Assembly (NCBI GenBank): GCA_015061315.1
Contig: SUWV01000009.1
Coordinates: 19,193-83,192, forward strand
DNA: 64,000 nucleotides
Direction of reading: 5' to 3'
Source: Lentimicrobiaceae bacterium
Lineage (GTDB): Bacteria; Bacteroidota; Bacteroidia; Bacteroidales; F082
The notes below the pieces were generated by a model. That model ran no database searches. It worked only from the letters and a program-made list of their open reading frames with translations, and was not told the DNA's origin. Numbering within the stretch: position 1 is the first letter of the stretch; every line of letters begins with the position of its first letter. This document shows, in pieces, positions 29,093 to 53,237 of this stretch. The translations under genes were made by a program, and so were the position numbers.

Positions 29093-29860
29093 TCATTCAA
29101 CAACCAGCTTCTCAATCTTTCCATTGACATCGATAAAATAAATTCCTGTCTTGATATCGCTGATGTTTATCGTTGCATCGTTAATATTTGAAATATGAAC
29201 TTCTTTCACACAGCGACCTGTCATGTCGTATATCTTGACATCGGCTTCGCTATTATGTTTAGAAGTGATTTTGATTTCCGTTGAAGCCGGATTAGGATAA
29301 ATCCCGATTTCATTATCATTCAATTCAGCAATAGCCGTAGGTTTATAATCTTCATCCATTGCAGTTTTTATCTCGTCAATAAGTTGTTGTGTTGAAGTGA
29401 TAGGCCAAATGTCTTCAATAACGATTTTACGATTTGGAGCTATAAGCATCACTCTTGGCATTATTATTACATTATAAAGATTTTCACAGATGTCGTGAAC
29501 TGAAGTTCCATCAGTGAACGGGTGAATTACCGGGAAATCAACCTGATATTTTTGCTTCCAAGTATCAATCTTCAACGAATCGGCTGTAGGGTCAATACCG
29601 ATAAAAAAGACCTCATCTTGATTAGCGCCGAAATAATAATAAGTTTCTGCAATACATGGGTCAATAATTTCAGAGTTATTACCATCGTTCCAGAAGAAAT
29701 ATAGCAAAGCGTATTGTCCGTCATCTAAGATATCGAACAAATGCACATTAGTTCCATATTCATCAGTACAATTAAAATCTACAGCATCCTTAAATCCTGT
29801 CTGTGCGTTGATGCTCAAAGTAAATATTATAGCACAAATTAATGATATAATTTTTTTCAT
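29093..29860 (-). CDS. T9SS-sorted thioredoxin-fold protein, CxxC lost (paralog 1)
   Basis: Has a signal peptide. The TlpA-like fold aligns with paralogs 3 and 4, but the active-site position reads YFFWNDGNNSE. The C-terminus IYPNPASTEIKITS...VKIYDMTGRCVKEV...GIYFIDV is a T9SS sorting domain. Confidence 0.7.
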   Translation of the reverse strand: MKKIISLICAIIFTLSINAQTGFKDAVDFNCTDEYGTNVHLFDILDDGQYALLYFFWNDGNNSEIIDPCIAETYYYFGANQDEVFFIGIDPTADSLKIDTWKQKYQVDFPVIHPFTDGTSVHDICENLYNVIIMPRVMLIAPNRKIVIEDIWPITSTQQLIDEIKTAMDEDYKPTAIAELNDNEIGIYPNPASTEIKITSKHNSEADVKIYDMTGRCVKEVHISNINDATINISDIKTGIYFIDVNGKIEKLVVE

Positions 29861-29908
29861 CTCTATAATTTTATTAGTGTTAAGTTTTATTTATTTTATG
29901 GAAGCAAT

Positions 29909-29932
29909 AAGGACGCAATTCAATGCGTCCTT
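29909..29932 (-). terminator. hairpin terminator downstream of paralog 2
   Basis: AAGGACGCA-attcaa-TGCGTCCTT is a perfect 9-bp stem located 13 nt after the stop of 29945..31825. Confidence 0.6.
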
Positions 29933-29944
29933 ACATTTTGTATT

Positions 29945-31825
29945 TTATTCTATTATGAGTTTTTCAAAAGAACCATTAATATTAATGAGGTATAATCCTT
30001 TATCAATATCGCTGATGTTTATCGTAGCTTTGCTGATGTCAGAAACGTGAACTTCTTTCATGCAGCGGCCTGTCATATCGTATATCTTGACATCGGCATC
30101 GCCATTGAGTTGAGAAGTGATTTTGATTTCTGTTGAAGCCGGATTAGGATAAATATTGAATGATGACGACAACTCTTCAATACCATCAGGTTTTGTTGTA
30201 ACAAATTCCACTTTTGTTATCTCGCCCCATTCGCCTTTGATGTTTTTACCTTGAGCTACAGCGTAATATTCGGTATTTGCCTCAAGACCTTCCCATGTCC
30301 AATCGTCGATTTCATACAAAGCGTAAGGATCTTCGTACAAGAATTTCATTGTAGAGTCGATACCGATAGAATCAGAGAATGATTTTTCAATCAAGATGTA
30401 ATGATATTCTGCAGTCTCTTCGTTAGGTGTTGCTACGACACGAACTGATGTCGTTGTAAGTATTTCCACCTTAACATCTATAACAGAAACACCTTCGCCA
30501 CCCATTGCCACTGTATTGACAGAAAGTTGCTGAAGTTCGCCCGACTTACCTTCTGCGTCTTTAGGAAGCACATAGATGATATATTCTGTATCAGGGACTA
30601 AATCCTTCCATAAGTGTGTTGAAGGCTCTGTTCTTGCGATGCTCCATTGTTCAATAAGTTGTTCCAATGTCACGCCGAATACGGTAGTCCATTGTTCCAT
30701 ACTGCCTACGCTATCGCATAAGATGAAGTAAGAAGCGCACTCATCGTTAGGAGTGAAAGAAGCCTCGATAGTAGTCTCGGTAATATCAATAACACCTATT
30801 TCTACAGCAGGACCGTCGGCAGGTTCCGGATTTGGATTTTCATTTTCAACAGCCTCAAGAGTCCATGTAGCTGCGAGAGTTACGGCAGCATCACAGAAAA
30901 CATAATTGACACCTTCCACATACTCAACTTTAAAATAGTTGTTAGCTTTGCCTGCCACGAAATAAGGATCTGTAAGATAGAAAGTCTCATTTCCATTATC
31001 AATCATTTTCAAGGCCGACTTGTTAGAACTATTTGCATCGACATTCCATTGTTGGCACACAATATAATAGCCATCAGCGGAACGAAGATAAACATTGTCA
31101 TTTCCTGCATCTTCGATGGTAAATATTTGAGAATCGCTTTCAGCGTAATCTGCTACACCTACACCACCGATAGGACCGCTCTCATGAGCATCATGATTGA
31201 AAATGTGAAGATATTGATTTGTTGCTAAATCTTTTATACGATATTGCTCTACTGTCGGTTCTGGATCTGGTTCCGGATCTGGATTTGGTTCTTCACCACA
31301 TTCATATTCCTGTATGCCAAACTCAGCAAGAGCTGATACTACATCATCTGAGGTTTTTATCTCGCCTATATCTTGAAGCACGATGCTTTTATTTGGAGCG
31401 ATGAGCATCGTTGTTGGCTGGTTACAGTTGTGAGCGCGCCAAATATCCATAGCAGGTCCTTCCATACCATTAGATTCATCGGTATTGTGAATCATTGGAA
31501 ATTCTATACCATATTCATCTACATATTTTTTTGTGTTATTTGTTGTGCCATTTGGTACAACTCCAATAAAAAATACATCATGCTGGTTACAGCCTAATCT
31601 CTTATAAGCCTCAACCAATGGAGGTGTCACTGTAGGCGTTGCCTCATTTGTTCTGGTATTAATATGCAACAATACATATTGATCATTTTCTAGTATTTCA
31701 TACAAATGGATTTCGTCTCCAAAATAATCTGTTGCGATAAAGTCTGGAGCTTCTGTCAATGTAGTTTGTGCCTTCAAGCCGAGTGCAAAAACCACAGCAA
31801 TGATAAGGGATAGAAATTTCTTCAT
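29945..31825 (-). CDS. T9SS-sorted thioredoxin-fold multidomain protein, CxxC lost (paralog 2)
   Basis: The N-terminal fold is homologous to the other paralogs, but the active site reads HINTRTNEATP. It has EPNPDPEPDPEP and ENENPNPEP linkers, a possible lectin-like middle domain, two copies of a roughly 95-aa TPN...EWGE module, and a T9SS sorting domain. Confidence 0.7.
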   Translation of the reverse strand: MKKFLSLIIAVVFALGLKAQTTLTEAPDFIATDYFGDEIHLYEILENDQYVLLHINTRTNEATPTVTPPLVEAYKRLGCNQHDVFFIGVVPNGTTNNTKKYVDEYGIEFPMIHNTDESNGMEGPAMDIWRAHNCNQPTTMLIAPNKSIVLQDIGEIKTSDDVVSALAEFGIQEYECGEEPNPDPEPDPEPTVEQYRIKDLATNQYLHIFNHDAHESGPIGGVGVADYAESDSQIFTIEDAGNDNVYLRSADGYYIVCQQWNVDANSSNKSALKMIDNGNETFYLTDPYFVAGKANNYFKVEYVEGVNYVFCDAAVTLAATWTLEAVENENPNPEPADGPAVEIGVIDITETTIEASFTPNDECASYFILCDSVGSMEQWTTVFGVTLEQLIEQWSIARTEPSTHLWKDLVPDTEYIIYVLPKDAEGKSGELQQLSVNTVAMGGEGVSVIDVKVEILTTTSVRVVATPNEETAEYHYILIEKSFSDSIGIDSTMKFLYEDPYALYEIDDWTWEGLEANTEYYAVAQGKNIKGEWGEITKVEFVTTKPDGIEELSSSFNIYPNPASTEIKITSQLNGDADVKIYDMTGRCMKEVHVSDISKATINISDIDKGLYLININGSFEKLIIE

Positions 31826-31892
31826 AATTTATAATTTTAATGTTATGATATATTTGTTTACGAGTCTACAAATATAAGAAATAATATTCAAT

Positions 31893-31930
31893 AAAAAAAG
31901 CAGCAACCGAGATTTGATTGCTGCTTTTTT
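31893..31930. terminator. intrinsic terminator downstream of paralog 3
   Basis: A7-GCAGCAA...TTGCTGC-T6 is a hairpin flanked by A and T runs. Confidence 0.7.
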
Positions 31931-31949
31931 ATGTTAAAATCTGTTAAGA

Positions 31950-33701
31950 TTATTCAATAACTAATTTTTGGATGTTATAGCTGTTATCTTGTTGAATTGA
32001 GATGAAGTAAACACCTTTATTCAAGTCTTCAACATTGACAGAGACCTTGCTCATATCGTTGGCAGAAATTTCTTTCACGCAGCGACCTGTCATATCGAAG
32101 ATATTGATTTGAGCTTTTCCATTCAATGATGATTCGATGTTAATCATTGATTGAGCTGGATTTGGATAGATATTGAAGTTAGCTTCTATCTCTGTCAAAG
32201 CGTCTAATGAAGGTGTTGTAAAATGAACTATTGAAGTTTCACCCCATTCGTTGTTAAGGTTTTTAGCTGTTCCCAATGCAACGTATGCTGTTTCTGGAGT
32301 AAGCTCTGTCCATGTTGCTGATGTTTGTTCTGATGCTGGATAACCGTCATTACGGATTTGTTGTATTAATGACTCAACACCTGTTCCGTCGAAGACAGCT
32401 TTTGTAACCAAACCGAAATGGAATTCCACTGCGTGTATGTTAGGAGTTGCTGTAATTGTAACTTCTGTTGGCATAGCTTTGACGTCTAATGCAACTTCTG
32501 CTGGACCAGCTTCTTTTTCAACTACAAATTCTTCCACTGTTGGAGCGCCCCATTCACCTTCGCCGTTTCTACCGATAGCGACTACATAGTAAGGAACATT
32601 ACCTGGAATATTTTCTGTTTCAACAACATATGTGTCTCTGTCGCATAATGGATAATCGTCGTTAATCAAACTGATGAGGAATTTATAACTATTTTCTTCG
32701 CTTTCATCATAGAACTCTTTTTTCACAAAACCAAAGTGGTAATCTGCTGTCGATTCGTTAGGTTTTGCTGTAGCGTTGACGTGTGTGTCTGTTACCATTA
32801 CTTCGAGTTGTATTTCAGCTTCGCCATTATCACCTGGACATATTGTCTTAGTTTCTATAACTGATTTGTTACCGTTTGCATCGTCATAACCAATAGCTTG
32901 TGCATAAACGAAGTATGTTGTTAATTCTTTCAAACCTTCGAAAGTGTGTGAAAACTCAGTTCCTTCTGCTTTTGTTCCGTTTGCAATAATATCTTCAGAA
33001 GTCAAGTTTGCTGACTCAGAGATTGTATAATAAAAATCTTTTACAGCTGCATTCGCACGGAAATCGACGAAAACTTTTGTCGATGCTTCATAAATAACAC
33101 CAACGCCGTCTGGTATATAGAAATTATCTTTCTTAACCTTTGCGACAGATACTATTGGTTCTTGGTCGCCACAAAAATTCTCAGAGATATTGCCGTCTGA
33201 CACTTCTATAAGTTTGTTTACCAAATCATTTGCTGATGTAGGTTTATAATCTTGGAAAAGAATGCTACGGTCTGGAGCGATGAGAATCAAAGTAGGACAA
33301 GCAGCGATGTTATATGTTTCATAAATCACATCACCAGTAGTACCACCAGTCTTAGTATGTATTGTTGGATAAGGAATATTGTAAGTGTTAATCCATTGGT
33401 CTGTAGAATATGAAGCGTATGTGTCGGTTGGAGAAATTTCCATGAAATACACGTCGCCTTCGTTACAACCTAATTTATAGTATGCATCTACGATTCTTGG
33501 TGCATATTCTTTACATGGTCCACATGTAGAGAAAAAGAAATCAATTAAAACATATTGACCACCATCTAAGATTTCAAAGAGGTCAATTTCTTCACCATTG
33601 TGAGCTGTAGATGTGAAGTTTACAGCTTCTGTTAATGTGGTTTGTGCGCTAACGCTGATGCTTAATAACAAAGCGAAAGCAAATGATAAAAACTTTTTCA
33701 T
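31950..33701 (-). CDS. T9SS-sorted thioredoxin-fold multidomain protein with an intact CGPC motif (paralog 3)
   Basis: LIDFFFSTCGPCKEYAP is a thioredoxin/TlpA active site. It has three copies of the TPN...EWGE module and a C-terminal IYPNPAQS...INIFDMTGRCVKEI sorting domain. Confidence 0.75.
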   Translation of the reverse strand: MKKFLSFAFALLLSISVSAQTTLTEAVNFTSTAHNGEEIDLFEILDGGQYVLIDFFFSTCGPCKEYAPRIVDAYYKLGCNEGDVYFMEISPTDTYASYSTDQWINTYNIPYPTIHTKTGGTTGDVIYETYNIAACPTLILIAPDRSILFQDYKPTSANDLVNKLIEVSDGNISENFCGDQEPIVSVAKVKKDNFYIPDGVGVIYEASTKVFVDFRANAAVKDFYYTISESANLTSEDIIANGTKAEGTEFSHTFEGLKELTTYFVYAQAIGYDDANGNKSVIETKTICPGDNGEAEIQLEVMVTDTHVNATAKPNESTADYHFGFVKKEFYDESEENSYKFLISLINDDYPLCDRDTYVVETENIPGNVPYYVVAIGRNGEGEWGAPTVEEFVVEKEAGPAEVALDVKAMPTEVTITATPNIHAVEFHFGLVTKAVFDGTGVESLIQQIRNDGYPASEQTSATWTELTPETAYVALGTAKNLNNEWGETSIVHFTTPSLDALTEIEANFNIYPNPAQSMINIESSLNGKAQINIFDMTGRCVKEISANDMSKVSVNVEDLNKGVYFISIQQDNSYNIQKLVIE

Positions 33702-33824
33702 TTTTAAGAATTTAATGATTAATTATGGATTAAAATTAAGGCGCAAATGTAATACTTTTTTTTGAACTGATATGCTGAAAATCAGACTTTTTTAAGTTAA
33801 AAATTATCAACTATCAATTATTAA

Positions 33825-34865
33825 CTATTCATTATTAATTATCAACTTCTCAATATTACCATTAATATTAATAAGGTATAATCCCTTTTCAATATCGCTG
33901 ATATTTATCCTTGTATTATCATCGCAGATACGAACATCTTTCACGCAGCGCCCTGTCATGTCGTAAATCTTGACGTCGGCTTCTTTCATTTCAGATATTA
34001 TATTTATTTCTGATGAAGCTGGATTAGGATATATCTTAAAATTATTTAACAATAACTCTTCCACATTTTCTCCCGAGAAAGTCTTGTCGCATGCTTCATC
34101 AGATTTTTCTGACTCTGCTGTAGTACTTACGGCTGTCACACTAAAACAATATTCTGTATCCGCTGTCAAGCCTGTTACTGTATATTGAATATCGTCGATG
34201 CTATCCGCCACTAACTCTGTTCCTTGGTAAAGGTTATAAGTAACAGCGTTTTCCACTGCGTTCCATACCACGAGCATAGAAGTGTCGCTTGTTGCAATCA
34301 CCGTCGCTTCAGGTTTCTCAGGAGTTACTACAGGGACTTCTGGCTCTTCATCGCAGCTGTGTTCTTCAATGCCAAATGGAGCGAGAGCGTCTACTATGTC
34401 TTGAGCTGTTTCTACAGGATAAATGTCTTGAAGTACAATGCTACGATCTGGAGCTATCAGCACCAATGTCGGATATTGTTTTATACCATAAGTGTCGTCA
34501 ATTTTATCGCCTCCTGCTTCTCTGCTGATAGTCGGATATTCAACACCAAATTTCTCTACCCACCATTGACATATTTCATCGCTGTCGGAAGGAGATATTT
34601 CCATGAAAAACACGTCATGCTTATTGCAACCGAGAGCCTCGTATGCCTCAACAACATGCGGACATGCATCAAAACAAGGAGAACAACTATAAAAGTAAAA
34701 ATCTATTAACACATATTGTCCTCTGTCTAAGATTTCAAAAAGATGTATAGTATCTTGACCGTAGCAATCTACTGCTGTGAAGTCGACAGCTTCTGTTAAT
34801 GTAGCTTGTGCTTTTACGTTAAGACTCAATACTATTGCAAATAAAAGTGATATAATTTTCTTCAT
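33825..34865 (-). CDS. T9SS-sorted thioredoxin-fold protein with a CSPC motif plus an FN3-like domain (paralog 4)
   Basis: LIDFYFYSCSPCFDACP. The FN3-like segment is VVWNAVENAVTYNLYQG...EYCFSVTAV. A T9SS sorting domain is present. Confidence 0.75.
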   Translation of the reverse strand: MKKIISLLFAIVLSLNVKAQATLTEAVDFTAVDCYGQDTIHLFEILDRGQYVLIDFYFYSCSPCFDACPHVVEAYEALGCNKHDVFFMEISPSDSDEICQWWVEKFGVEYPTISREAGGDKIDDTYGIKQYPTLVLIAPDRSIVLQDIYPVETAQDIVDALAPFGIEEHSCDEEPEVPVVTPEKPEATVIATSDTSMLVVWNAVENAVTYNLYQGTELVADSIDDIQYTVTGLTADTEYCFSVTAVSTTAESEKSDEACDKTFSGENVEELLLNNFKIYPNPASSEINIISEMKEADVKIYDMTGRCVKDVRICDDNTRINISDIEKGLYLININGNIEKLIINNE

Positions 34866-34897: not shown

Positions 34898-34938
34898 CAA
34901 ATTATCATTTTGTGAATGGCTTGCTTCTAAAAAAAAAT

Positions 34939-34946
34939 TATCTTTG
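34939..34946 (+). promoter_or_regulatory. -7 box TATCTTTG upstream of HMG-CoA reductase
   Basis: A perfect TAnnTTTG 38 nt upstream of the ATG at 34984. It lies inside the longer GTG-initiated ORF, which supports the shorter start. Confidence 0.6.
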
Positions 34947-34983
34947 CAGAAACAGTAGTAAAGGCTTAAAATATATACAGATA

Positions 34984-36312
34984 ATGAGAAAAATAACACA
35001 TATTAGAAAAGGCTTTTCCAAGCTTCTCAAGGAAGATAAATTGAAAGCTGTTGCGGAATGTGTGAAGAACCCGTCTGAGTTTATTTCCTTATTGAAGAGT
35101 TTCTGGCATTCCGACGAGGAGAAACAGAAACAATTTGATGAGTTCAGCGAGAACACTATTTCTAATTTTCATGTCCCTTACGGCGTATCTCCCAATGTGA
35201 TTATCAATGATGAAACGTATATCGTTCCTATGGTTATTGAAGAAAGCTCTGTCGTGGCAGCAGCATCGGCAGCGGCGAAGTTCTGGGGCGACAGAGGTGG
35301 CTTCCATGCAGAAATAGTTGATGTGAAAAAAGTAGGTCAGGTGCATTTCTGCTGGAAAGGAGAGAAAGACACTTTGACAAAACTGATGCCCGACATCAAG
35401 GCTGAGCTTCTGAAAAACACTGCTTCCATCACAGAGAAAATGGAGAAACGCGGCGGCGGAATATTGGATATTGAACTCATCGATTTCACCGATAAGATAG
35501 ATAACTATTATCAGCTTCGCGTCACCTTCAACACCTGCGACTCCATGGGCGCTAACTTCATCAATTCTATCTTGGAAAACTTCGGTCATAGCTTGCAAGA
35601 CTTCTTCTTACGTCAGGATAATTTGAAAGAAGACGAGAGAGAAGTCGAGATTGTGATGTGTATCTTGTCGAATTATACTCCCGAATGTTTAGTGAAGGTT
35701 TGGGTTGAATGTGACGTGAAACAGTTAGATGGCGTCGATGAAAAACTCGATGGCAAGGCTTTCGCCGAGAAATTCAAGAAAGCTGTCGATATTGCACACG
35801 TCGACGTATATCGCGCTACCACTCATAACAAAGGAATTTATAACGGCATCGACGCCGTCGTCATCGCGACAGGCAACGACTTCCGTGCGGTAGAAGCAGC
35901 AGGACATTCCTACGCCGCAAGAAACGGTCGCTACGAAAGTCTTTCATACGTCGAAATTAAAGATGATATTTTCAGATTTACCTTGGAAGTACCACTCGCT
36001 CTCGGCACCGTCGGCGGATTGACATCCTTACATCCTCTTGCAAAACAATCGCTCGAGCTCATGGGTAATCCTTCGGCAAGACAGCTTATGATGATAGCTG
36101 CGACAATGGGACTCGCCAATAATTATGCTGCCGTTAAGTCACTAACAACAAAAGGAATACAACAAGGACACATGAAGATGCACCTCGCCAATATCCTCAA
36201 TCAGCTTGGAGCGACAGAAAATGAAAAGACATTGGCGATAGAATATTTTAAAGATAAAATCGTTTCTTATTCTGAAGTAGAGAAATTTTTACAATTAATA
36301 ATAACCAAATAG
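34984..36312 (+). CDS. mvaA: hydroxymethylglutaryl-CoA reductase, class II
   Basis: EESSVVAAAS, CDSMGANFIN and LGTVGG are class II HMGR signatures. It is followed by other mevalonate-pathway genes. Confidence 0.9.
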   Translation: MRKITHIRKGFSKLLKEDKLKAVAECVKNPSEFISLLKSFWHSDEEKQKQFDEFSENTISNFHVPYGVSPNVIINDETYIVPMVIEESSVVAAASAAAKFWGDRGGFHAEIVDVKKVGQVHFCWKGEKDTLTKLMPDIKAELLKNTASITEKMEKRGGGILDIELIDFTDKIDNYYQLRVTFNTCDSMGANFINSILENFGHSLQDFFLRQDNLKEDEREVEIVMCILSNYTPECLVKVWVECDVKQLDGVDEKLDGKAFAEKFKKAVDIAHVDVYRATTHNKGIYNGIDAVVIATGNDFRAVEAAGHSYAARNGRYESLSYVEIKDDIFRFTLEVPLALGTVGGLTSLHPLAKQSLELMGNPSARQLMMIAATMGLANNYAAVKSLTTKGIQQGHMKMHLANILNQLGATENEKTLAIEYFKDKIVSYSEVEKFLQLIITK

Positions 36313-36407
36313 CCTGAAGGGCTTATATAGATATAACGTATGGCATGGCCGTACGGAATTGCCTGAAGGGCTTATATAGATACAACGTATGGCATGGCCG
36401 TACGAAT
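36312..36407. repeat. tandem direct repeat, 2 x 49 bp, each unit carrying a CGTATGGC-atg-GCCGTACG hairpin
   Basis: Units at 36312-36360 and 36361-36407 differ at one position within the first 44 nt. They start at the last base of the HMGR stop codon. Confidence 0.85.
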
Positions 36408-36420
36408 ATAATGAGGAATT

Positions 36421-37419
36421 ATGAATTGTTTTAAATCGAACGGTAAATTTTTATTGACGGGAGAGTATCTCGTTTTGAAGGGCGCTACTGCTTTGGCTCT
36501 TCCCTTGGCATTAGGACAGAGCATGGAGGTAGAAATTTTAGGCTCCAACGATGGCAGGATTTATTGGGAAGCGCTTTTGAAGCCTGCGGTCAATGGTTTA
36601 TGGTCTACAGACATCGTTCATAGTGAAATACCTTGGTTTAAGGTTGTTTTAGACAAAAGAGATTTTAGTGTTGTTGCGACTGACGACAAGGAAAGAGCTG
36701 AGCGTTTGTCGGATATATTATCGAAGGCTAAGAGACTGAACGAAACTCTTTTTGATGAGCCGAGCGACTATAAATTCTGCACATATTTGGATTTCGACCC
36801 GCACTGGGGTCTGGGCAGCAGCTCCACCTTAATTAATAATATAGCCGAATGGGCTAATATAAATCCTTATCTTTTGTTGGACGAGACTTTCAAAGGCTCT
36901 GGCTACGACATAGCATGCGCTAAGGCGGAAGCACCAATCTTTTATCAAATCAACGAATCGACAGGACAAAGAGTCAATGAGTCGAGAGCGGCAAACTTCA
37001 ATCCTTCTTTTAAAGATAATATTTACTTTATATATCAAGGTCATAAGCAAAATTCTGCCAATGAAGTAAAGGCTTTCTTGGATAAGAAGAAAAATTATGA
37101 TAGAGAAATTAAATCGATCAGCGAGATCAGCAGAATTATTCCTGACATACAGACACTCAGTGATTTCAATTATTTCATCAAAGTTCATGAAGAGATAATG
37201 TCGAGCTGCTTAGAACGTAAACGCATAAAAAAACATTTCAACGATTTTGAAGGTGAGATGAAATCGCTCGGAGCATGGGGCGGCGATTTCTTCATGGCAG
37301 CCACAGAATGGGACGATGATAAAGTAATTGAATATTTTAGAAATAAAGGACTTGATGTTATTTTCAAATATAACGACATAATATTAAATCGTGAAATTGA
37401 AAAAACTCTAACCCTTTAA
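36421..37419 (+). CDS. GHMP-family kinase, probable phosphomevalonate kinase (ERG8-like)
   Basis: GKFLLTGEYLVLKGATALALP at the N-terminus, the GHMP motif HWGLGSSSTL, and the operon context. Confidence 0.6.
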   Translation: MNCFKSNGKFLLTGEYLVLKGATALALPLALGQSMEVEILGSNDGRIYWEALLKPAVNGLWSTDIVHSEIPWFKVVLDKRDFSVVATDDKERAERLSDILSKAKRLNETLFDEPSDYKFCTYLDFDPHWGLGSSSTLINNIAEWANINPYLLLDETFKGSGYDIACAKAEAPIFYQINESTGQRVNESRAANFNPSFKDNIYFIYQGHKQNSANEVKAFLDKKKNYDREIKSISEISRIIPDIQTLSDFNYFIKVHEEIMSSCLERKRIKKHFNDFEGEMKSLGAWGGDFFMAATEWDDDKVIEYFRNKGLDVIFKYNDIILNREIEKTLTL

Positions 37420-37452
37420 CACCTCTAATCCTTTAACCCTCTAACACCCACA

Positions 37453-38472
37453 ATGAATAATCAGATAATAAAACATAGTCCATCTAATATCGCAATAGTA
37501 AAATATTGGGGCAAACACGGAAATCAACTTCCTAATAATCCGTCTATCAGTTTTACCTTAAGTAATTGCTTTACAGAAACGAAAATAACTTACAGCAATA
37601 TAGATTCTCAGTTTTTCAAATCCTCAGATTCTCAGATTTCTTTAGATTTCTTTTTTGAAGGAAAGGAAAATCAAGCTTTTAAAGATAAGATAGAGAAGTT
37701 TATTCTGAAGAACGAACAATATTTTTCTTTCTTAAAAGGGCTTCATCTGAATATTGAAAGTCGCAATTCTTTTCCACATTCTTCTGGCATCGCTTCGAGT
37801 GCATCATCTATGAGTGCATTGGTAATGTGCTTATTAGGAATTAAATATAAAGACAGAGAGATTGATTTACAGGAGGCTTCATTTCTTTCAAGATTAGCAT
37901 CGGGCAGTGCAGCTCGTTCTGTATATCCGACAATGACCTTGTGGGGGAAAACTCCAACATTGTCGAATAGTTCCGATGAGTACGCCATTCCTATAGGCGA
38001 TATGATAGCACCAGTCTTCAAGTCATATCACGACACAATATTGATTGTCAGCTCAAAGGAAAAAAGTGTTTCAAGCCGCGCTGGTCATTCCTTGATGGAA
38101 AATCACCCTATGGCAGAAAGTCGTTACGCCACAGCAAGAAAAAATACTGAAGATTTATTGACGATTTTAAAACAAGGCGACATAGAAGGTTTTATAAAAA
38201 TAGCCGAAGCTGAAGCTAATCAGCTGCACGATTTAATGGCAACATCAAAGCCTTCATATACTCTCAAAGAACCTAATACTATTAATATCATTAATAAAAT
38301 TTTAGAATTTAGAAAAGACACTTCTCTTCCAATATGTTATACATTAGACGCTGGTCCTAACGTACATCTTCTCTATCCTGATTTCTGCGCCGATAAGGTT
38401 CAGCTCTTCATTGAAGACGTGTTGAAAGACTATTGTTTTGATAATAAATATATCGAGGATAAGGTTGGATGA
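37453..38472 (+). CDS. mvaD: diphosphomevalonate decarboxylase
   Basis: SPSNIAIVKYWGK, FPHSSGIASSASS and YTLDAGPNVH are MVD signatures. Confidence 0.9.
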   Translation: MNNQIIKHSPSNIAIVKYWGKHGNQLPNNPSISFTLSNCFTETKITYSNIDSQFFKSSDSQISLDFFFEGKENQAFKDKIEKFILKNEQYFSFLKGLHLNIESRNSFPHSSGIASSASSMSALVMCLLGIKYKDREIDLQEASFLSRLASGSAARSVYPTMTLWGKTPTLSNSSDEYAIPIGDMIAPVFKSYHDTILIVSSKEKSVSSRAGHSLMENHPMAESRYATARKNTEDLLTILKQGDIEGFIKIAEAEANQLHDLMATSKPSYTLKEPNTINIINKILEFRKDTSLPICYTLDAGPNVHLLYPDFCADKVQLFIEDVLKDYCFDNKYIEDKVG

Positions 38473-38536
38473 GGAATGAAGAATGTAGAATGTAGAATGA
38501 AGAATGTAGAATGGTTAATGCTTATTGACTTATATC

Positions 38537-39475
38537 ATGAACAAACAATATCACGGCAAATTAATATTATTCGGCGAATATTCTATGATATTCGGTTCTG
38601 AGGCTTTGCTGATGCCGTATTACTCTGTTGGCGGAGAATGGACATCTGTCATAAATCGTCCATCGGAAAGAGCCTTTGAATCTAACGCTAATATTCGTAA
38701 GTATTACGATTATCTTTGTGATGACGACGACTTTAGGATTCTTGATCTGAGACGTTTCGGTATGGAGCTTGACGCCGGCTTATATTTCGATTCTAATATT
38801 CCTTTCGGTTATGGCGTAGGCAGCTCTGGCGCATTGACAGCGGCTATCTATGATCGTTATAAGTTAATAGAAATTAAGGATATTTGTAGATTGAAGAAAT
38901 TTCTTGCTAAGATGGAGAATTTCTTTCATGGCAGCAGCTCTGGCATCGACCCATTGCAATGTTATCTCGGGAAGCCGTTTGTGTTAAGACAACAGGACAA
39001 CGAGTCAACAAGTCAACGAGTTATAGAGAGTCAGTCTCCAATGGTAGAAATCTTGAATGATGACTTTATGTCAGACGATATTCACATTTTCTTGATTGAT
39101 ACCGAAATAAAAAGTCCGACAGCTCCTTTAGTGCAGCATTTCAAGGAGTTGAGAAAAGATGAAGCATATCTAAATAAATTCGATAATGATTATATTCCTT
39201 TGATAAGCAACTGCATCGCGACACTAATCGATAAGAAAGATGAAGATTTCTTCAATTATCTCTCACAGCTTTCTCAGATGCAAATTGAGTTGTTGTCGCA
39301 TACTATTCCAGAAGCTACAAGACCTTATTTCTTAAAAAATATTAAGGATGATGGTTTTCAGGTGAAATTATGTGGTGCTGGTGGCGGTGGCTATCTCTTA
39401 GGATTTTGTAAAGATATTGATAAAATCAATAATTTTTGGAATGATTTTGGTAATAAAATCGTCTGGGTAAAATAA
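38537..39475 (+). CDS. mvk: mevalonate kinase (GHMP family)
   Basis: GKLILFGEYSMIFGSEAL, the GHMP motif PFGYGVGSSGALTAA and C-terminal KLCGAGGGGY. The ATG at 38537 is preferred over the TTG at 38525. Confidence 0.75.
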   Translation: MNKQYHGKLILFGEYSMIFGSEALLMPYYSVGGEWTSVINRPSERAFESNANIRKYYDYLCDDDDFRILDLRRFGMELDAGLYFDSNIPFGYGVGSSGALTAAIYDRYKLIEIKDICRLKKFLAKMENFFHGSSSGIDPLQCYLGKPFVLRQQDNESTSQRVIESQSPMVEILNDDFMSDDIHIFLIDTEIKSPTAPLVQHFKELRKDEAYLNKFDNDYIPLISNCIATLIDKKDEDFFNYLSQLSQMQIELLSHTIPEATRPYFLKNIKDDGFQVKLCGAGGGGYLLGFCKDIDKINNFWNDFGNKIVWVK

Positions 39476-45008: not shown

Positions 45009-46778
45009 ATGATGAAACATTACAACATACCGATTTTTTTACCCGAACTCGCTTGCCCTTATCGCTGCGTTTATTGTAATCAATTTAGCATTACGGGAAA
45101 TGACGATATTGTAAAACCTGAAGATGTTAAGAATATAATCGACAGCCACTTAGCTTCTTTTAAAGAAGAAAATCGTTTCGTGGAAGTGGCTTTCTTCGGT
45201 GGTAATTTCACCGGACTTCCTGTCAAAATGCAAAACGATTATCTTGAAGTGGTGCAGCCTTATCTTGATAAAAATCTCATTCACGGTATTCGTTGTAGCA
45301 CTCGCCCCGATTATATCTCGCTTCAGCGTGTTAAAGAAATTAAACATCTCGGTATGCGTAACATCGAACTCGGAGCACAAAGCACTAACGACGAAGTTCT
45401 GAAACATTGTAAACGTGGTCATACTTACAACGACATCGTTGAGGCATCGCAGATAATTCTTTCCGAAGGAATTACGTTGGGACTACAAATGATGATAGGT
45501 CTTCCTTACGATTCTGAAGAGAAGGATTTTCAGACAGCAAAAGATATAGTAAATCTCGGAGCTAAAGAGACTCGCATCTATCCTTGTATCGTAGTGAAGG
45601 ACACTGAGTTAGAGGCTTTATATCGTAATGGAGATTATAAAGCTCTTTCTATCAATGAAGCTGTAAGTCGTTCTTCAAAATTATATTCTTATTTTATTGA
45701 AAATCAAGTTAAAGTTTTAAGAATAGGTCTGCATCAATCTGATGAGTTGGATAAAGAAGGTTACGTTGCCGGTCCATATCACAAGAATTTTGCTGAGATG
45801 GTTTTCTCTCATATCTGGAAAGAGAAGTTTGAGAATCTGAAAATCTCAGAATCTGAAAACCTGAAAAAAGACATAATAATCAATGTGCCTGCATCGCAGA
45901 TAAATCACGCTATAGGATGGAATGGCGAGAATAAGAGAATGTTGTTAGATCGATTTGATAAAGTAGAGTTTAAGGCTAATGACAAAAGACAAAAGACAAA
46001 AGATGAAGATGATGATTTTACGTTTACCATCACTACAAAAGACGAGCTTCCGACAATTATCGCTGATTCGAGAATGCCAGAGGATGCGAAGAAAAATCTG
46101 AAGAAATTAGGAAACGTCCTTTTCATCAATCCTACTTCTGTGACTTATAATTCAATATCTTCACATCCAGATATTTTCTTCTTTCAAAAAGACGATGCTT
46201 TGATTTATGCGCCCAATGCTCCGAAAAGAATAGTCAAGGAATTGAAGAAGCGAAAGATAAAACTCATCGAAGGCAAGAAAGAAGTCGGGAAGAAATATCC
46301 GGAGACGGTTCCTTATAACGCAGTCGGAATTGGAAATCTGTTGATACATAATTTAAAACATACCGACGAGACGATTTTGTCATCTTACGAAAATCACATA
46401 AATGTTAATCAAGGATATACGCGATGTAATCTTTTGGCTTTGAATGAAAATGCGTTTATCACGTCAGATGTTGGCATTTTCAATGTAGTCAACAGTCAAC
46501 AGACAACAGACAACAGTCTTTATCCACACGAATCTCTTGTAGGTACGTCCATATTGTACATCGACCCAAAACAAATTAAATTGGAAGGTCAGAAAAACGG
46601 ATTTTTCCCAGGCTGTTGCGGCGTTTGGAAAAACAATCTTATCGTTTGTGGCAGCACAAAAAATCTAAAAGAGAAAGCCGAATTAGATAAATTCTTGAAA
46701 GATAATAATTTCAATCTCATTGAATTATACGACGGAGATTTGATTGATGTGGGAAGCGTTTTTTCAATTGACAATTAA
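45009..46778 (+). CDS. radical SAM (ELP3-like) protein fused to a C-terminal domain of unknown function, possibly DUF6873/GME-fold-like
   Basis: The N-terminus has CPYRCVYCNQ (CxxxCxxC) and a radical SAM core of about 300 aa. The C-terminal 240 aa or so contains SSHPDIFFF and other features that I only tentatively associate with the DUF6873 family. Confidence 0.6.
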   Translation: MMKHYNIPIFLPELACPYRCVYCNQFSITGNDDIVKPEDVKNIIDSHLASFKEENRFVEVAFFGGNFTGLPVKMQNDYLEVVQPYLDKNLIHGIRCSTRPDYISLQRVKEIKHLGMRNIELGAQSTNDEVLKHCKRGHTYNDIVEASQIILSEGITLGLQMMIGLPYDSEEKDFQTAKDIVNLGAKETRIYPCIVVKDTELEALYRNGDYKALSINEAVSRSSKLYSYFIENQVKVLRIGLHQSDELDKEGYVAGPYHKNFAEMVFSHIWKEKFENLKISESENLKKDIIINVPASQINHAIGWNGENKRMLLDRFDKVEFKANDKRQKTKDEDDDFTFTITTKDELPTIIADSRMPEDAKKNLKKLGNVLFINPTSVTYNSISSHPDIFFFQKDDALIYAPNAPKRIVKELKKRKIKLIEGKKEVGKKYPETVPYNAVGIGNLLIHNLKHTDETILSSYENHINVNQGYTRCNLLALNENAFITSDVGIFNVVNSQQTTDNSLYPHESLVGTSILYIDPKQIKLEGQKNGFFPGCCGVWKNNLIVCGSTKNLKEKAELDKFLKDNNFNLIELYDGDLIDVGSVFSIDN

Positions 46779-46968: not shown

Positions 46969-48927
46969 ATGAAAAAAATTGAGCTTTTATCGCCGGCGAA
47001 GAATCTTGAAGTAGGCATCGCGGCTATCAATCATGGCGCTGATGCTGTGTATATTGGCGGACCGAGTTTTGGTGCGAGAGAGAAAGTTGGTAACAGCATT
47101 GAAGATATTGAGACTCTGTGCAGACACGCGGCTCTCTTCGATGCTAAAGTATATGTCACGATGAATACTCTCTTGTTCGACAATGAGTTAGAAGATGCTC
47201 GCAAGCTCGCTTACGACTGCTGGAATGCTGGTGTCGATGCACTCATAGTCCAGGATATGGCGCTGCTGAATATGGATATGCCTCCTATCGCACTTCACGC
47301 TTCGACTCAATGTCATAATATTGACGCAGAGAAGGTTAAGTTCTTGGAAGACGTAGGATTTTCTCAAGTCGTTTTGGCGAGAGAATTAAGCATCGAACAG
47401 ATAAAAGACATTCGTTCTAAGACGACAGTTCCGTTAGAATATTTCGTTCACGGTGCCTTGTGCGTCTCGTATAGCGGACAATGTTATTTGAGTCACGTCA
47501 TCGGTGGACGTTCCGCTAACAGAGGTGCCTGCGCTCAGCCTTGCCGTCTCAGCTGGAATCTCGAAAATGCGGAAGGCAAACGCTTGGCTACCAACAGACA
47601 TCTTCTTTCTTTAAGAGATCTGAATAACTCTAAAAACATAGAAGAACTCATCGACGCCGGAATCTCTTCTTTTAAGATTGAAGGCAGGTTGAAAGATATT
47701 GACTACGTGAAAAATGTCACTGCCTTTTACAGAAAGAAAATCGACGAAATCATTGAACGTCGCGACGATATTTGCAGAAGCTCACGCGGCGAAAGCAATC
47801 CCTCTTTCTATCCAAATCCAGAGAAATCGTTTTCAAGAGGCTTCACCGACTATTTCATCCACGGAAGACAAAAATATATCGACGCTCCATATTCGCCTAA
47901 GTCGATGGGAGAATATCTCGGAACGATAGAAAAAGTCAAGAATAAGTCAGTGACTATCAGAACAGGAAAAACGCTTCATAACGGCGACGGACTTTGTTTC
48001 TTAGACAGAGAAAACAATCTTTTAGGATTTAATGTTAACGCCGTGGCGGAAAACAAAACACGTTCTTTGACTCAGACTGTTACGAGCAACTCTGACATTT
48101 CGATGGCAACGCGATTTAAGATTGAAGGCAGCAAGATTTTCAGAAACAGCGACCTTGTCTGGCAGAAGGAAGTCGAGAAATCGCAAGGTAACAGAAAGAT
48201 GAAAATAGACTTGATATTTACTGATACAGAAGACGGATTTGCCTTGTCAGCGAAATTACATGATACAGATTCAGAATATATCACGACATATTTATCTACC
48301 GAGAAAGAAATCGCCAACAATGCGGATAAGGCGTTGGAAAATATCAAGAATAAACTATCGCAATGGGGCGATACGGAATTTGTGGTGGAGGAGTTTTGTT
48401 TTGGTCAACAAGACAACGAGACAACAAGTCACCGAGATGTGGAGTTGCAGAAATTTCCCGTAGAGACATACGGACGTATGTCTTATTTTATTAGGGCATC
48501 AGTTCTCGGTGAGATGAAAAAAGATTTGGTCGAGAAGCTACGTTCATATCTCATTGAGAAACATCGTGATGAAAGAGAACGTAGAGATGTCACTCCTGTA
48601 GAGACGTACGGACGTACGTCTTCACAACAAAATGTAATTTATCCTAAAGAACATCTTTCATATCTCGGCAATGTCATCAACAAGAAAGCGAGAGAGTTTT
48701 ACGAGCTTCATGGTGTGAAAGATATTGAAGACGGTTTGGAGAAAATCAAATCTAATGACGAGCTTGTTGTGATGACGACGAAACATTGTATTCGTTACGC
48801 TAATAATATATGTAGCAAGGAGATAGGGAAGCCAGCGACATCCTTATATTTGGTCAACGACAAAGGACGCTTCCGTCTCGATTTCGATTGCAGAAATTGT
48901 TGCATGAAAGTGATAAAAGAAAAATAA
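46969..48927 (+). CDS. peptidase U32 family protein (long form with a C-terminal extension)
   Basis: ELLSPA, GADAVYIGG, FVHGALCVSYSGQCYLS and SANRGACAQPCR are U32 signatures. The 652-aa product contains repeat-derived segments (see findings). Confidence 0.85.
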   Translation: MKKIELLSPAKNLEVGIAAINHGADAVYIGGPSFGAREKVGNSIEDIETLCRHAALFDAKVYVTMNTLLFDNELEDARKLAYDCWNAGVDALIVQDMALLNMDMPPIALHASTQCHNIDAEKVKFLEDVGFSQVVLARELSIEQIKDIRSKTTVPLEYFVHGALCVSYSGQCYLSHVIGGRSANRGACAQPCRLSWNLENAEGKRLATNRHLLSLRDLNNSKNIEELIDAGISSFKIEGRLKDIDYVKNVTAFYRKKIDEIIERRDDICRSSRGESNPSFYPNPEKSFSRGFTDYFIHGRQKYIDAPYSPKSMGEYLGTIEKVKNKSVTIRTGKTLHNGDGLCFLDRENNLLGFNVNAVAENKTRSLTQTVTSNSDISMATRFKIEGSKIFRNSDLVWQKEVEKSQGNRKMKIDLIFTDTEDGFALSAKLHDTDSEYITTYLSTEKEIANNADKALENIKNKLSQWGDTEFVVEEFCFGQQDNETTSHRDVELQKFPVETYGRMSYFIRASVLGEMKKDLVEKLRSYLIEKHRDERERRDVTPVETYGRTSSQQNVIYPKEHLSYLGNVINKKAREFYELHGVKDIEDGLEKIKSNDELVVMTTKHCIRYANNICSKEIGKPATSLYLVNDKGRFRLDFDCRNCCMKVIKEK

Positions 48928-50749: not shown

Positions 50750-50777
50750 GTAGAGACGCACAGCCGTGCGTCTTTAC
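50750..50777. repeat. TAGAGACG-family hairpin between aspS and pfkA
   Basis: GTAGAGACGCAC-agcc-GTGCGTCTTTAC is a 12-bp stem with one mismatch. Confidence 0.75.
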
Positions 50778-50803: not shown

Positions 50804-51898
50804 ATGAAACGAGTATTAGTATTAACAGGCGGCGGCGATTGTCCAGGTTTGAATGCCGTGATAAGAGCCATCGTGAAGAGAGCCTCGCAGGAAAAAGACT
50901 GGGAAGTCCTCGGCAGCATACAAGCCTTCAACGGAGTGCTATGGGAGCCATCAGAGATAGTGCGACTCACTCCTGAGACTGTGAGAGGAATACACTTCAG
51001 AGGCGGAACCATTTTAGAGACAACTAACAAAGGAGGCCCGTTCTCGTGGCCGGTGAAAAACAACGACGGCACTTGGACAACGGTAGATCGCTCCGATGAG
51101 ATGATCAAGAAACTGCAGTATATGGGCATCGACTGCGTCATCAATATCGGCGGTGACGGCTCGCAAAGAATATCAAAGAAGTTATTCGACAAAGGACTTA
51201 ATATAATAGGTGTTCCAAAGACTATCGATAACGACTTATCTATGACCGACAGCACTTTTGGTTATCAGACTGCCGTCGAGATAGCCACCGAGGCAGTAGA
51301 TAAGTTAGTCACAACGGCAGCAAGTCACAACCGCGTTTTTGTATTAGAGGTGATGGGTCGCGACGCCGGATGGATTGCTTTAAACGCAGCCGTTGCTGGC
51401 GGAGCGGAGGTGTGTCTCCTTCCAGAATTTCCTTACGACATAGAGAAAGTAAAAGAGAAGTTAGAGAGCCGCTTCGTCAATGACAGAGGTTTCGCTGTTG
51501 TTGTCATCTCTGAAGGCGCTAAGCCTAAAGACGGACAGCAGGTGTTTGAAGTCAGCAAGGAAGTAGGTTATGAAAACGTGAAACTTGGTGGCATCGGACA
51601 GAAGTTCATCGAGCAGATGAAAGCCGCAGGATTCAAACACGATATGCGCGAGACCACATTAGGTCACTTGCAAAGAGGCGGTGTGCCAATAGCATACGAC
51701 AGAGTGTTGGCATCGCAATTTGGCGTCAAAGCATTCGAGATGGTGTTGAATCAGGAATACGGAAATATGGTAGCTTATCGTCATCCGAATATTATCTCAG
51801 TACCTTTGAAAGACGCCGTCGCTAAGATGAATCTCGTCACCGAAGAACACGACTTAGTCAGAACCGCGAAAGGACTTGGAATCTCGTTGGGAATATAA
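50804..51898 (+). CDS. pfkA: 6-phosphofructokinase
   Basis: LTGGGDCPGLNAVIR, IGGDGS, PKTIDNDL and MGRDAG. Confidence 0.9.
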   Translation: MKRVLVLTGGGDCPGLNAVIRAIVKRASQEKDWEVLGSIQAFNGVLWEPSEIVRLTPETVRGIHFRGGTILETTNKGGPFSWPVKNNDGTWTTVDRSDEMIKKLQYMGIDCVINIGGDGSQRISKKLFDKGLNIIGVPKTIDNDLSMTDSTFGYQTAVEIATEAVDKLVTTAASHNRVFVLEVMGRDAGWIALNAAVAGGAEVCLLPEFPYDIEKVKEKLESRFVNDRGFAVVVISEGAKPKDGQQVFEVSKEVGYENVKLGGIGQKFIEQMKAAGFKHDMRETTLGHLQRGGVPIAYDRVLASQFGVKAFEMVLNQEYGNMVAYRHPNIISVPLKDAVAKMNLVTEEHDLVRTAKGLGISLGI

Positions 51899-51918
51899 GA
51901 AATTGAGAATCTGAGAAA

Positions 51919-51979
51919 CTGAGAATCTGAGAAATTGAGAAATTTTCAGATTTTCAAGTTTTCAGATTTTCAGTTTTTT
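51919..51979 (+). terminator. intrinsic terminator of pfkA built from word repeats
   Basis: The left arm at 51919-51941 (CTGAGAATCTGAGAAATTGAGAA) pairs with the right arm at 51951-51973 (TTTTCAAGTTTTCAGATTTTCAG). The stem is 23 positions with three G-U pairs and one mismatch. The loop is 9 nt and is followed by T6. Confidence 0.7.
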
Positions 51980-53237
51980 ATAATATATTCATCCTATTAG
52001 CGTCTTGTTTTAGGAAGACGAAGAACATAAGACTGAACATCAATAGGCTTGATCCGCCGTAGCTGAGGAATGGCAATGGTATTCCGATGACAGGCATCAA
52101 GCCTATTGTCATTCCTATGTTGACGAAGAGATGGAAGAATATTATCGAGGCAATGGCATAGCCGTAAATTCTGCTAAAAGAGGAGCGCTGTCGTTCCGCG
52201 AGCCATATTATCCTCATCAGTAAGGCAAGATAAAGCGAAAGCAAAACAAAAGAACCAATAAAACCAAACTCCTCCCCTATCGTACAGAAAATAAAGTCGG
52301 TATGTTGTTCAGGGACGAAGTTGTATTTCGTCATCGTGCCTTGCATATAACCTTTGCCAGAGAAACCTCCTGAGCCAATGGCGATCTTCGACTGATGCAG
52401 GTTATATCCCACGCCATAAATATCTTTTTCGACACCTAATATGATATTGATACGAGTTCTTTGATGTTGTTTCAAGACCTTATAAAAGAAGAAATCAACG
52501 GAGAAAACCATCACGGCTGCCACAGAAAATATCGCTATTAACTTCCAAATATTCTTCTTATTTCTTTCAATGAAGAACATCGTGACGGCAAATAGAACTG
52601 CCAAGCCTATCAGCACATACCACTTAGAAAAATATAAGGTCAGGAGAAACAAAATCACTGCAGCTAATCCTATCAGCAGTATATTACCCGACATCCCCTC
52701 GCGATAGAAGACGAGGATAAAAACGAGGAACACGAGTGCTGAACCAGCATCGCCTTGTAGCAAGACGAGCATCATAGGAAACAGCACCAAAGCGTAGGCT
52801 ATCATCTGTGTCTTGAATTTAGAGAAGTCTGTGTTGATGTCACCGAGATAGTGTGCCACTGCCAATGCTGTCCCGAATTTGGCAAACTCTGAAGGCTGGA
52901 ATGAGAAGCCGCCGAACTGTATCCATGAACGCGAGCCCGCTATGGTGGAGCCCGCCACAAGGACATAAATCAATAATAATATTGAAATGCCATAGATTAT
53001 GTAAGCAAAAGTATTGAAGAACTTAGCATCGATGAGCATTATGATGAGACCCATAAAAAGACTCAACATAAGGAAAAGCGCCTGCTTGCCATAATGCTGC
53101 GACATGTCGAAGATACTAGGATTGTTCTCGTTGAAAGCCGCCGCGTAAATCGTTGAAATGCCGATAGCAGCCAAAATGAGATATATCGCAAGTATCCACC
53201 AGTCAATCTTTCCTACTATGTTGTTTCGTGTTGTCAT
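51978..53237 (-). CDS. rodA: rod shape-determining protein RodA (SEDS family)
   Basis: A 419-aa polytopic protein with QPSEFAK and PFLSYGGSS motifs. It lies downstream of mrdA. Confidence 0.9.
   Translation of the reverse strand: MTTRNNIVGKIDWWILAIYLILAAIGISTIYAAAFNENNPSIFDMSQHYGKQALFLMLSLFMGLIIMLIDAKFFNTFAYIIYGISILLLIYVLVAGSTIAGSRSWIQFGGFSFQPSEFAKFGTALAVAHYLGDINTDFSKFKTQMIAYALVLFPMMLVLLQGDAGSALVFLVFILVFYREGMSGNILLIGLAAVILFLLTLYFSKWYVLIGLAVLFAVTMFFIERNKKNIWKLIAIFSVAAVMVFSVDFFFYKVLKQHQRTRINIILGVEKDIYGVGYNLHQSKIAIGSGGFSGKGYMQGTMTKYNFVPEQHTDFIFCTIGEEFGFIGSFVLLSLYLALLMRIIWLAERQRSSFSRIYGYAIASIIFFHLFVNIGMTIGLMPVIGIPLPFLSYGGSSLLMFSLMFFVFLKQDANRMNIL

Follow-up and report, generated by a model that had tools for sequence, protein, structure and literature searches.

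An in-frame octamer array in a mevalonate kinase gene of a Lentimicrobiaceae bacterium and its relation to dispersed long simple sequence repeats

The octamer tract in the mevalonate kinase gene

A 64-kb window (64,000 nucleotides of contig SUWV01000009.1, assembly GCA_015061315.1, from a Lentimicrobiaceae bacterium) was analyzed, with a repetitive tract in its mevalonate kinase gene (mvk) as the main subject. The mvk gene (38537-39475, + strand) was assigned by the Pfam domain GHMP_kinases_N, by NCBIfam TIGR00549 (below its cutoff), and by PDB matches, all of which were mevalonate kinases. The mechanically listed open reading frame (ORF) covers 38525-39475 and starts from the TTG at 38525 (MTYIMNKQ...); because the orthologues begin with MNKQY..., the true start is probably the ATG at 38537. 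The gene belongs to a complete mevalonate-pathway operon (34912-39475) encoding HMG-CoA reductase, a GYDIA-family GHMP kinase, diphosphomevalonate decarboxylase, and mevalonate kinase, and all three kinase/decarboxylase genes of this operon bear repeat-derived loops.

The 39-mer CAACAGGACAACGAGTCAACAAGTCAACGAGTTATAGAG occurs once in the window, at 38990-39028 (+) inside the mvk ORF, and the 39-mer CAACAAGACAACGAGACAACAAGTCACCGAGATGTGGAG occurs once, at 48406-48444 (+) inside the ORF of a U32-family gene. The initial annotation had estimated their identity at about 33 of 39 positions, and the exact count was indeed 33/39 (36/45 on extension), whereas the mvk 39-mer, compared with 50 shuffles of the window, reached a mean best match of 22.8 and at most 24. 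The peptides reported for the two tracts, QQDNESTSQRVIE in mvk and QQDNETTSHRDVE in U32, agreed with our translations.

Analysis with Tandem Repeats Finder (TRF) resolved the mvk tract into period 16 (2.0 copies, 38990-39021) and period 8 (3.0 copies, 38998-39021), with the units 87% matched. Written by units, the tract reads CAACAG / GACAACGA GTCAACAA GTCAACGA GTTATAGA GAGTCAG / TCT, which is a tandem octamer of the form GWCAACRA. The span first claimed for the tract, 38990-39021, coincides with the TRF core, but its tandem octamer nature and a third coding copy at 36951-36988 had been overlooked. Codon comparison with the alleles of related loci (L003 and L008-L012), together with TRF, delimited an in-frame insert of 39 bases, or about five octamer units, at 38996-39034 (+), which encodes DNESTSQRVIESQ and is flanked by resident CAACAG (38990-38995) on the left and TCT (39035-39037) on the right. 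No terminal inverted repeats and no target duplication were found at the insert boundaries (CAACAG/...CAG/TCT). The insert folded no better than its shuffles (z −0.04) and has no secondary structure of its own; the same fold score led us to drop the idea that the 3′ end of the tract, GTTATAGAGAGTCAGTCTCC, is a collapsed GTAG hairpin.

The mvk tract is a variable-length tandem 8-base array, that is, a long simple sequence repeat (LSSR), and not a discrete 39-base element. From the earlier proposal that a common element had been inserted, the lineage-specific insertion from a dispersed repeat family is retained and the discrete element is not. The degenerate motif GACAAYRAGWCAAYRAG (at most two mismatches) gave 10 overlapping matches at four places in the window, compared with 0.25 expected. 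The Rfam scan returned no match at the repeats; its only matches in the window were a tRNA (1794-1865, −) and a Flavo-1 RNA (RF01705, 44.6 bits against a gathering score of 42; 6870-6952, −).

Variation of the mvk loop among orthologues

Relatives of mvk were found by a contig scan with alignment A1, a single MVK protein used as query having found none. They are Bacteroidales metagenome-assembled genomes (MAGs), and the clade of the window is an uncultured gut or rumen lineage that carries the NCBI label Lentimicrobiaceae. The interval from HGSSSG to IKSPTAPL measures 68 aa in the window, L001, and L005, 59-61 aa in L008-L012, and 53 aa in L003, the shortest in-clade allele, and it measures 52-56 aa in Flavobacteriales, Saprospiraceae, and more distant Bacteroidales. 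In the solved Staphylococcus aureus kinase 2x7i, an alignment gap lies opposite the insert. Judged from the kinase alignment that the initial annotation had suggested, the mvk insert is lineage specific and 13-15 residues long; the segment is missing from the outgroup kinases and is not conserved in kinases of repeat-free genomes. An AlphaFold model built from alignment A1 (mean pLDDT 57) showed the insert as coil between two strands, placing the tract in a surface loop between two predicted β-strands.

The short L003 allele reads TTA AGT CAACAG TCT, and this sequence, AGTCAACAGTC, holds both the heptamer and the octamer seed. L008, L009, L011, and L012 have about four heptamers (NCAACNG) in the loop, and the heptamer alleles are exact multiples of the L003-type seed. 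When the loop was excluded from tree building, the QQDNESTSQRV alleles grouped as a single clade, and by this phylogeny, the octamer insert arose once, in the clade containing the window. The short alleles SQQS, SQQTS, and SNQTS are nested among the heptamer alleles on the loop-free tree and are therefore secondary contractions. A hairpin-derived RDVTPVAS segment is present in other alleles, and P0006 lacks 8 aa (three units) of the array. At least eight indel events were counted at the loop among 28 orthologues, and the alignment thus marks it as an indel hot spot.

The insert was present in the independent assemblies L001, L002, and L005, and the 99%-identical protein cluster P0001 has 94 members. 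In L001 and L005, the diagnostic bases that distinguish the mvk copy from the U32 copy are preserved, and no concerted evolution between the two was detected, indicating that the copies are old, vertically inherited paralogues that are not being homogenized.

Related arrays in the window

The U32-family gene (46969-48927, +; Pfam Peptidase_U32 and DUF3656) contains four in-frame hypervariable sites. Because of these sites, its orthologues are 86-99% identical yet range from 625 to 719 aa in length (alignment A2, 29 orthologues). Site 3 is the mvk-like octamer array, CAACAAGA CAACGAGA CAACAAGT CACCGAGA TGTGGAGT TGCAG (48406-48450, +), the stretch over which the extended identity to mvk was counted; this array is missing from the L006 and L007 alleles. 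Short U32 alleles also contain GACAACG/CAACAG. Upstream of U32, at ~46766, there is a 1290-base presence/absence difference with respect to L005 (8420-9710), and an AAA_14/DUF4143 ATPase gene adjoins U32 in L001 and L005, follows the radical-SAM gene in L003, and is absent from the window.

The third coding copy lies in the GYDIA-family GHMP kinase gene, a neighbor of mvk (36421-37419; NCBIfam NF040656). It reads CAACGAAT CGACAGGA CAAAGAGT CAATGAGT CGAGAG (36951-36988, +), has decayed to an identity of 26/45, and encodes INESTGQRVNES / NESTGQRVNESR, and NES/ETTSxR peptides are common to mvk, U32, and the GYDIA kinase. This kinase has two variable sites. The first measures 43-78 aa in the clade versus 40 aa in the outgroups (41 aa in one of four), and the second, which is the loop of the third copy, measures 48-49 aa in the clade versus 44 aa in three of the four outgroups and 46 aa in the fourth. 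The spacer between the HMG-CoA reductase and GYDIA kinase genes (36308-36408) is filled by 2.1 copies of a 49-base unit, with small hairpins in each unit (fold z −2.8).

Further in-frame arrays were found in two other genes. The diphosphomevalonate decarboxylase gene mvaD carries 4.6 copies of the octamer AGATTCTC (37602-37638, +), which amount to a 7-aa insert relative to L003. The radical-SAM/DUF6873 gene (45009-46778) has three variable sites and carries, all on the + strand, 4.8 copies of the octamer TGAAAATC (45830-45867), 3.3 copies of the heptamer GACAAAA (45981-46003), and 4.6 copies of the heptamer AGTCAAC (46487-46518), the last of which adjoins a hairpin remnant at ~46537-46555 (a 12-base indel with respect to L005). 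The coding arrays are imperfect, with 72-100% matches.

Outside the genes, an array at 1024-1073 (+), GTCACCGA GTCGCTTA GACAATAA GTCAATAA GACAATAA GTCAATGA GT, has TAA in most of its units, and the TAA-bearing intergenic tract that had been reported there, GACAATAAGTCAATAAGACAATAAGTCAATGAG, was located at 1040-1072. At 51894-51982, two octamer arrays abut in opposite orientation (TGAGAAWY units, then TTTTCAGA units) and are predicted to form a hairpin of ~40 bp (RNA minimum free energy −43 kcal/mol, z −8.9) followed by a U-run. Because this hairpin and U-run lie between the convergent pfk and ftsW/rodA genes, the inverted pair looks like a terminator built from repeats.

Companion GTAG-type hairpins

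A second repeat class accompanies the arrays and consists of hairpins 24-75 bases long in which the base, GTAGAGAC(G)...(C)GTCT, is conserved and the interior varies. These hairpins are ~7-fold commoner in the clade than in the outgroups, 10 of 17 lie inside long ORFs (at least 340 aa), and identical hairpins of 24-26 bases recur in different genes and genomes. In U32, the hairpin GTAGAGACATACGGACGTATGTCT (48460-48483, +) lies directly 3′ of the array, and a 24-base hairpin indel, CCTGTAGAGACGTACGGACGTACG (48595-48618, +; peptide PVETYGRT), occupies site 4; the two are translated as VETYGRMS and VETYGRTS, respectively. The site-4 hairpin is absent from L005 (97.4% nucleotide identity over the shared region), the indel is precise and shows no target-site duplication, and its sequence recurs in the radical-SAM gene of L006. 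The wecB gene (13290-14468) is 8 aa longer than its L001 orthologue at the hairpin GTAGAGGCACACGGACGTGTGTCT (13925-13948, −), which is read antisense. Two hairpins are intergenic, namely, GTAGAGACGCACAGCCGTGCGTCTTTAC downstream of aspS (50750-50777, +; fold z −5.8) and a long GTAGAGA...GTCTCTAT hairpin (1072-1134, +) directly after the TAA-bearing array. The hairpins behave like very small mobile repeats.

Array density and change between strains

Counts were made of period-7 and period-8 arrays having three or more copies. Their density was 0.36 per kb in the window, mostly 0.25-0.81 in L001-L012 (0.08 in one 12-kb locus), and ~0.1 in L013-L016, compared with 0.031 per kb in the outgroup loci (1.19 Mb), the window being ~12-fold denser. 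Period 7/8 accounts for 23 arrays in the window, versus four for the remaining periods from 4 to 12. Called ORFs leave 8.8% of the window uncovered, and 18 of 24 arrays fall within this fraction or at its border; the other six are fully inside genes. By exact canonical-unit counts, CAAC-type units accounted for 35/129 clade arrays versus 1/37 outgroup arrays and TCAG-type units for 28/129 versus 2/37; single-linkage clustering of the units, which merged 90 of the 129 arrays into one cluster, was uninformative and was replaced by these counts.

GTCAACRA arrays with three or more perfect octamer units occurred in at least 120 metagenome contigs (L090-L209) with GC contents of 0.26-0.69. In several contigs of GC ~0.5, including human-gut ones, the octamer array is followed by a T-run outside long ORFs; the octamer family therefore extends well beyond the clade.

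The arrays change by whole units between strains. Between the window and L005, intergenic arrays differ by 7 and 22 bases, and the coding differences are 12 and 24 bases. L003 and L088, which are 95% identical, are separated in the mvk loop by 51 bases, made up of a hairpin and three heptamers; they also differ by exactly three units (24 bases) in a coding octamer array, by a 72-base hairpin in place of heptamers, and by intergenic arrays that are swapped for arrays of another unit. The spacer before mvaD consists of GAGCYRT/AACTCAY units in L003 (8884-8957), where the two arrays are mutually reverse complementary, and of GRCAAAG/TTAGCCW units in L088 (8877-8956).

Shared peptide, stop-codon filter, and frame filter

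A 7- or 8-base unit shifts the frame with each copy, and three successive units are read in all three frames; the periodic peptide of the unit GTCAACGA is QRVNESTS. Because the unit is read in all frames, its in-frame copies on one strand all encode a single periodic peptide, differing at most by rotation. The shared peptide is thus an automatic consequence of the shared unit and strand, and the peptide common to mvk, U32, and the GYDIA kinase is therefore not independent evidence of common origin.

The GTCAAC strand is free of stops, whereas the complementary strand contains TGA and for this reason is never coding; in the intergenic variant CAATAAGT, with its TAA, neither strand is free of stops. 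Among the GTCAAC-type arrays inside long ORFs of the metagenome contigs, the number with a reverse-strand open frame was 0, and all were read on the stop-free strand. The in-frame array TGAGAATC TGAAAATC TCAGAATC TGAAAACC has a single unit in which TGA would fall in frame (45846), and this unit reads TCA, a direct trace of the stop-codon filter. The filter on coding arrays is real. The initial annotation had proposed selection against stop codons after insertion; strand use and the TCA at 45846 bear out the filter, and both later purging and the fixation of only stop-free variants fit these data. Such stop-codon logic was applied earlier to TAACTGA heptamers (PMC4679880).

The net coding length changes between close strains were 12, 24, 24, 51, and 72 bases, all multiples of three, and the intergenic changes included 1, 2, 7, 8, and 22 bases. 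A frame filter operates at the coding sites.

Origin of the arrays

We consider it probable, though far from certain, that the mvk tract is an in-frame LSSR drawn from a genome-wide array population, block-copied into permissive loops, and filtered by frame and stop codons. In this process, arrays would grow and shrink by slippage in intergenic DNA, where such changes would be harmless, and multi-unit blocks would be copied into, or exchanged with, arrays already residing in permissive loops. Candidate routes are ectopic gene conversion, template switching between dispersed arrays, and multi-unit slippage. Selection would then retain an event only if its length is divisible by three, its coding strand has no stop, and its location is a tolerant loop. 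Most likely, the polar loop thus encoded is carried as a passenger and is neutral, as is assumed here.

Copying between arrays is favored over purely local slippage from CAACAG-type seeds, in which mvk, U32, and the GYDIA kinase would have expanded independently and their similarity would reflect convergence with no transfer. A single-unit step would be a frameshift in an essential gene, so that three units would be needed at once, and slippage cannot convert heptamers into octamers. A small, constant set of unit families, and not random seeds, recurs at many loci with no relation to one another and in many genomes and metagenomes; one octamer variant (NESTxQRV) is found in three copies only in the sublineage of the window; and whole arrays are replaced by arrays of another unit between strains that are 95% identical. 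The local account draws on the presence of both seeds in the L003 allele and the exact seed multiples of the heptamer alleles, on GACAACG/CAACAG in the short U32 alleles, on the whole-unit gains and losses between strains, and on slippage as the established model for heptanucleotide repeats (Mrazek 2007, as summarized in PMC4679880). On balance, we regard it as unlikely, though a serious rival.

Several points nevertheless weigh against the favored explanation. The entry of an array into a coding loop is a postulated step in it, and the neutrality of the loop is an assumption. The resident CAACAG fits both the heptamer and the octamer units, which makes a purely local expansion possible. The structure model is poor, and coverage of this genome is 64 kb only. 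In both mvk and U32 the unit variants follow the order A,G,A,G, which at first suggested a copied block, but adjacent units differ in 32% of cases overall and in 61% within mixed runs (47 perfect metagenome runs); because strict alternation is not general in the family, this argument for block copying is weak. The 16-base alternation of GTCAACGA and GTCAACAA was likewise considered as a higher-order unit shared by the whole family, which would have been proof of block copying; with the value of 61% in mixed runs, it was not decisive.

We judged it improbable that the array and the GTAG hairpin together constitute a discrete nonautonomous mobile element, similar to a miniature inverted-repeat transposable element (MITE) or a repetitive extragenic palindrome (REP), moved by a transposase encoded elsewhere, for example, of the IS200/RAYT type (RAYT, REP-associated tyrosine transposase); this would be the common element of the initial annotation in its strict form. 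The REPs of Escherichia coli begin with GTAG, like the companion hairpins. Arrays and GTAGAGAC hairpins are adjacent in U32 (48406-48483), in the intergenic region 1024-1134, and in the L088 mvk allele, the 24-26-base hairpins are identical across genes and genomes, and the 24-base U32 indel is precise and without target duplication, as in IS200/IS605-type transposition. The mvk tract, however, has no hairpin, terminal inverted repeats, or duplication, and the copies differ in array length. The scanned window ORFs of at least 120 aa contained no transposase of any kind, nor did the Pfam lists of the genes in L001-L007, L088, and L089 include one.

A selected function, either as a phase-variation contingency locus acting by frameshift or as a selected peptide module, appears highly improbable. 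Intragenic simple sequence repeats drive phase variation in several pathogens (PMC4679880), and the loop sequences vary between strains, but the arrays here reside in cytoplasmic housekeeping enzymes and are imperfect where coding, net changes at coding sites come only in multiples of three, and the periodicity is that of 8-base DNA rather than of 3, with loop sequences that are not conserved. As for chance similarity, low-complexity bias, or an assembly artifact, the peptides do contain many Q, N, S, T, E, and R residues; given 33/39 identity against a shuffle maximum of 24 and an insert that recurs in independent assemblies, the probability of such an origin is negligible.

A bolder proposal, which we hold to be unlikely, is that in this clade 7/8-base arrays and GTAG-type mini-hairpins are written and erased chromosome-wide by an active, sequence-specific process, precisely and without target duplication. 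A domesticated IS200/RAYT-like single-strand transposase and a template-switching polymerase are candidates for it. If this were true, the loops of essential enzymes would be a continually rewritten record, and the process would be an undescribed bacterial system of templated micro-insertion.

These results indicate that essential enzymes can be colonized, at several sites per gene and with differences between close strains, by repeats of nontriplet unit length. The array-bearing loops provide a natural map of insertion-tolerant loops, and the arrays explain misleading peptide similarity between unrelated proteins, which bears on homology searches, domain calling, and quality checks of MAGs. 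The arrays and hairpins offer ready strain-typing markers in gut and rumen metagenomes. The origin of LSSRs has been a standing question since they were first catalogued in cyanobacteria and other bacteria, and this clade is suited to seeking their generator, since a small, constant set of unit families recurs across loci and genomes and even in other Bacteroidales.

Other features of the window

A four-gene run on the − strand (29093-34865) has T9SS sorting (Por_Secre_tail) domains, two of the genes being also thioredoxin-like (AhpC/TSA), and this run is kept upstream of the mevalonate operon in L003, L088, and L089. A restriction-modification pair at 9526-11827 consists of two overlapping genes, one for an HpaII-type endonuclease (RE_HpaII, E 1.9e-123) and the other for a C5 cytosine methylase.

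Comparison with known repeat systems

Literature searches on heptamer and octamer repeats in Bacteroidetes and Lentimicrobiaceae yielded no description of such in-frame arrays. The closest named example is the short tandemly repeated repetitive (STRR) heptamers of cyanobacteria, 7-base arrays that can pair into intergenic hairpins (PMC2670836), as the window pair at 51894-51982 likewise does, and an STRR has been reported inside the RNase P RNA gene, according to a title listed in PMC4046671 (Vioque 1997). The mvk tract has an 8-base and not a heptanucleotide unit (neighboring alleles and other window arrays do have 7), its host belongs to the Bacteroidales and not to the heterocyst-forming cyanobacteria, and it is moreover translated. 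One STRR unit, CAACAGT, is a rotation of the AGTCAAC of this clade. Heterocystous cyanobacteria are also said, in work attributed to Elhai et al. in 2008, to contain dispersed repeats of ~20-30 bases that turn up at new places, even inside conserved genes; these differ in phylum and sequence.

The closest functional analogue is the Rickettsia palindromic element (RPE), a seemingly selfish repeat ~150 bp long, in defined families, and present in frame in many housekeeping genes (Ogata et al. 2000, as reviewed in PMC10969869). Like the RPE, the arrays in mvk, U32, and the GYDIA kinase lie in frame in unrelated housekeeping genes and share a tolerated peptide. However, the RPE is a palindrome of ~100-150 bp in an alphaproteobacterium, whereas the mvk insert is a variable-length array of 39 bases with a fold z of −0.04. 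The terminal inverted repeats and target-site duplication of MITEs are lacking at both the mvk insert and the 24-base U32 indel. The mvk tract does not form the palindrome of 20-40 bases typical of REPs and of REPINs, whereas the companion GTAGAGAC hairpins do, being palindromes of 24-75 bases with a conserved base, a variable interior, and many dispersed copies (PMC3116915). The location differs from the extragenic one of REP/REPIN, since the tract is intragenic, as are 10 of the 17 hairpins, and no RAYT (Y1 transposase) was found among the scanned window ORFs of at least 120 aa or in the Pfam lists of the gene-called related loci. Phase-variable contingency loci have near-perfect repeats, usually in a surface gene, unlike the 87% units, cytoplasmic enzymes, and multiples of three observed here. 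Because these defining features are absent, the tract is not an STRR, RPE, MITE, or REP.

The mvk tract is a member of the LSSR class. LSSRs have units of 5-11 bases, with heptanucleotides the commonest, and slippage is their proposed cause (Mrazek, Guo and Shah 2007, as summarized in PMC4679880). Like them, the mvk tract consists of head-to-tail units within the 7-8-base range and is longer than expected by chance (TRF, ~5 units; 10 motif matches versus 0.25). The clade shows a lineage-confined, genome-level excess (0.36 versus 0.031 per kb) and whole-unit changes in copy number (intergenic, 7 and 22 bases; coding, 24 bases or 3 × 8, as in P0006), and its arrays are likewise mostly intergenic, with stops in one orientation limiting their location. 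Within genes, according to the summary in PMC4679880, LSSRs mainly have units that are multiples of three, whereas the arrays of this clade place nontriplet units in frame in several essential enzymes, with block totals that are multiples of three and with loops as hot spots.

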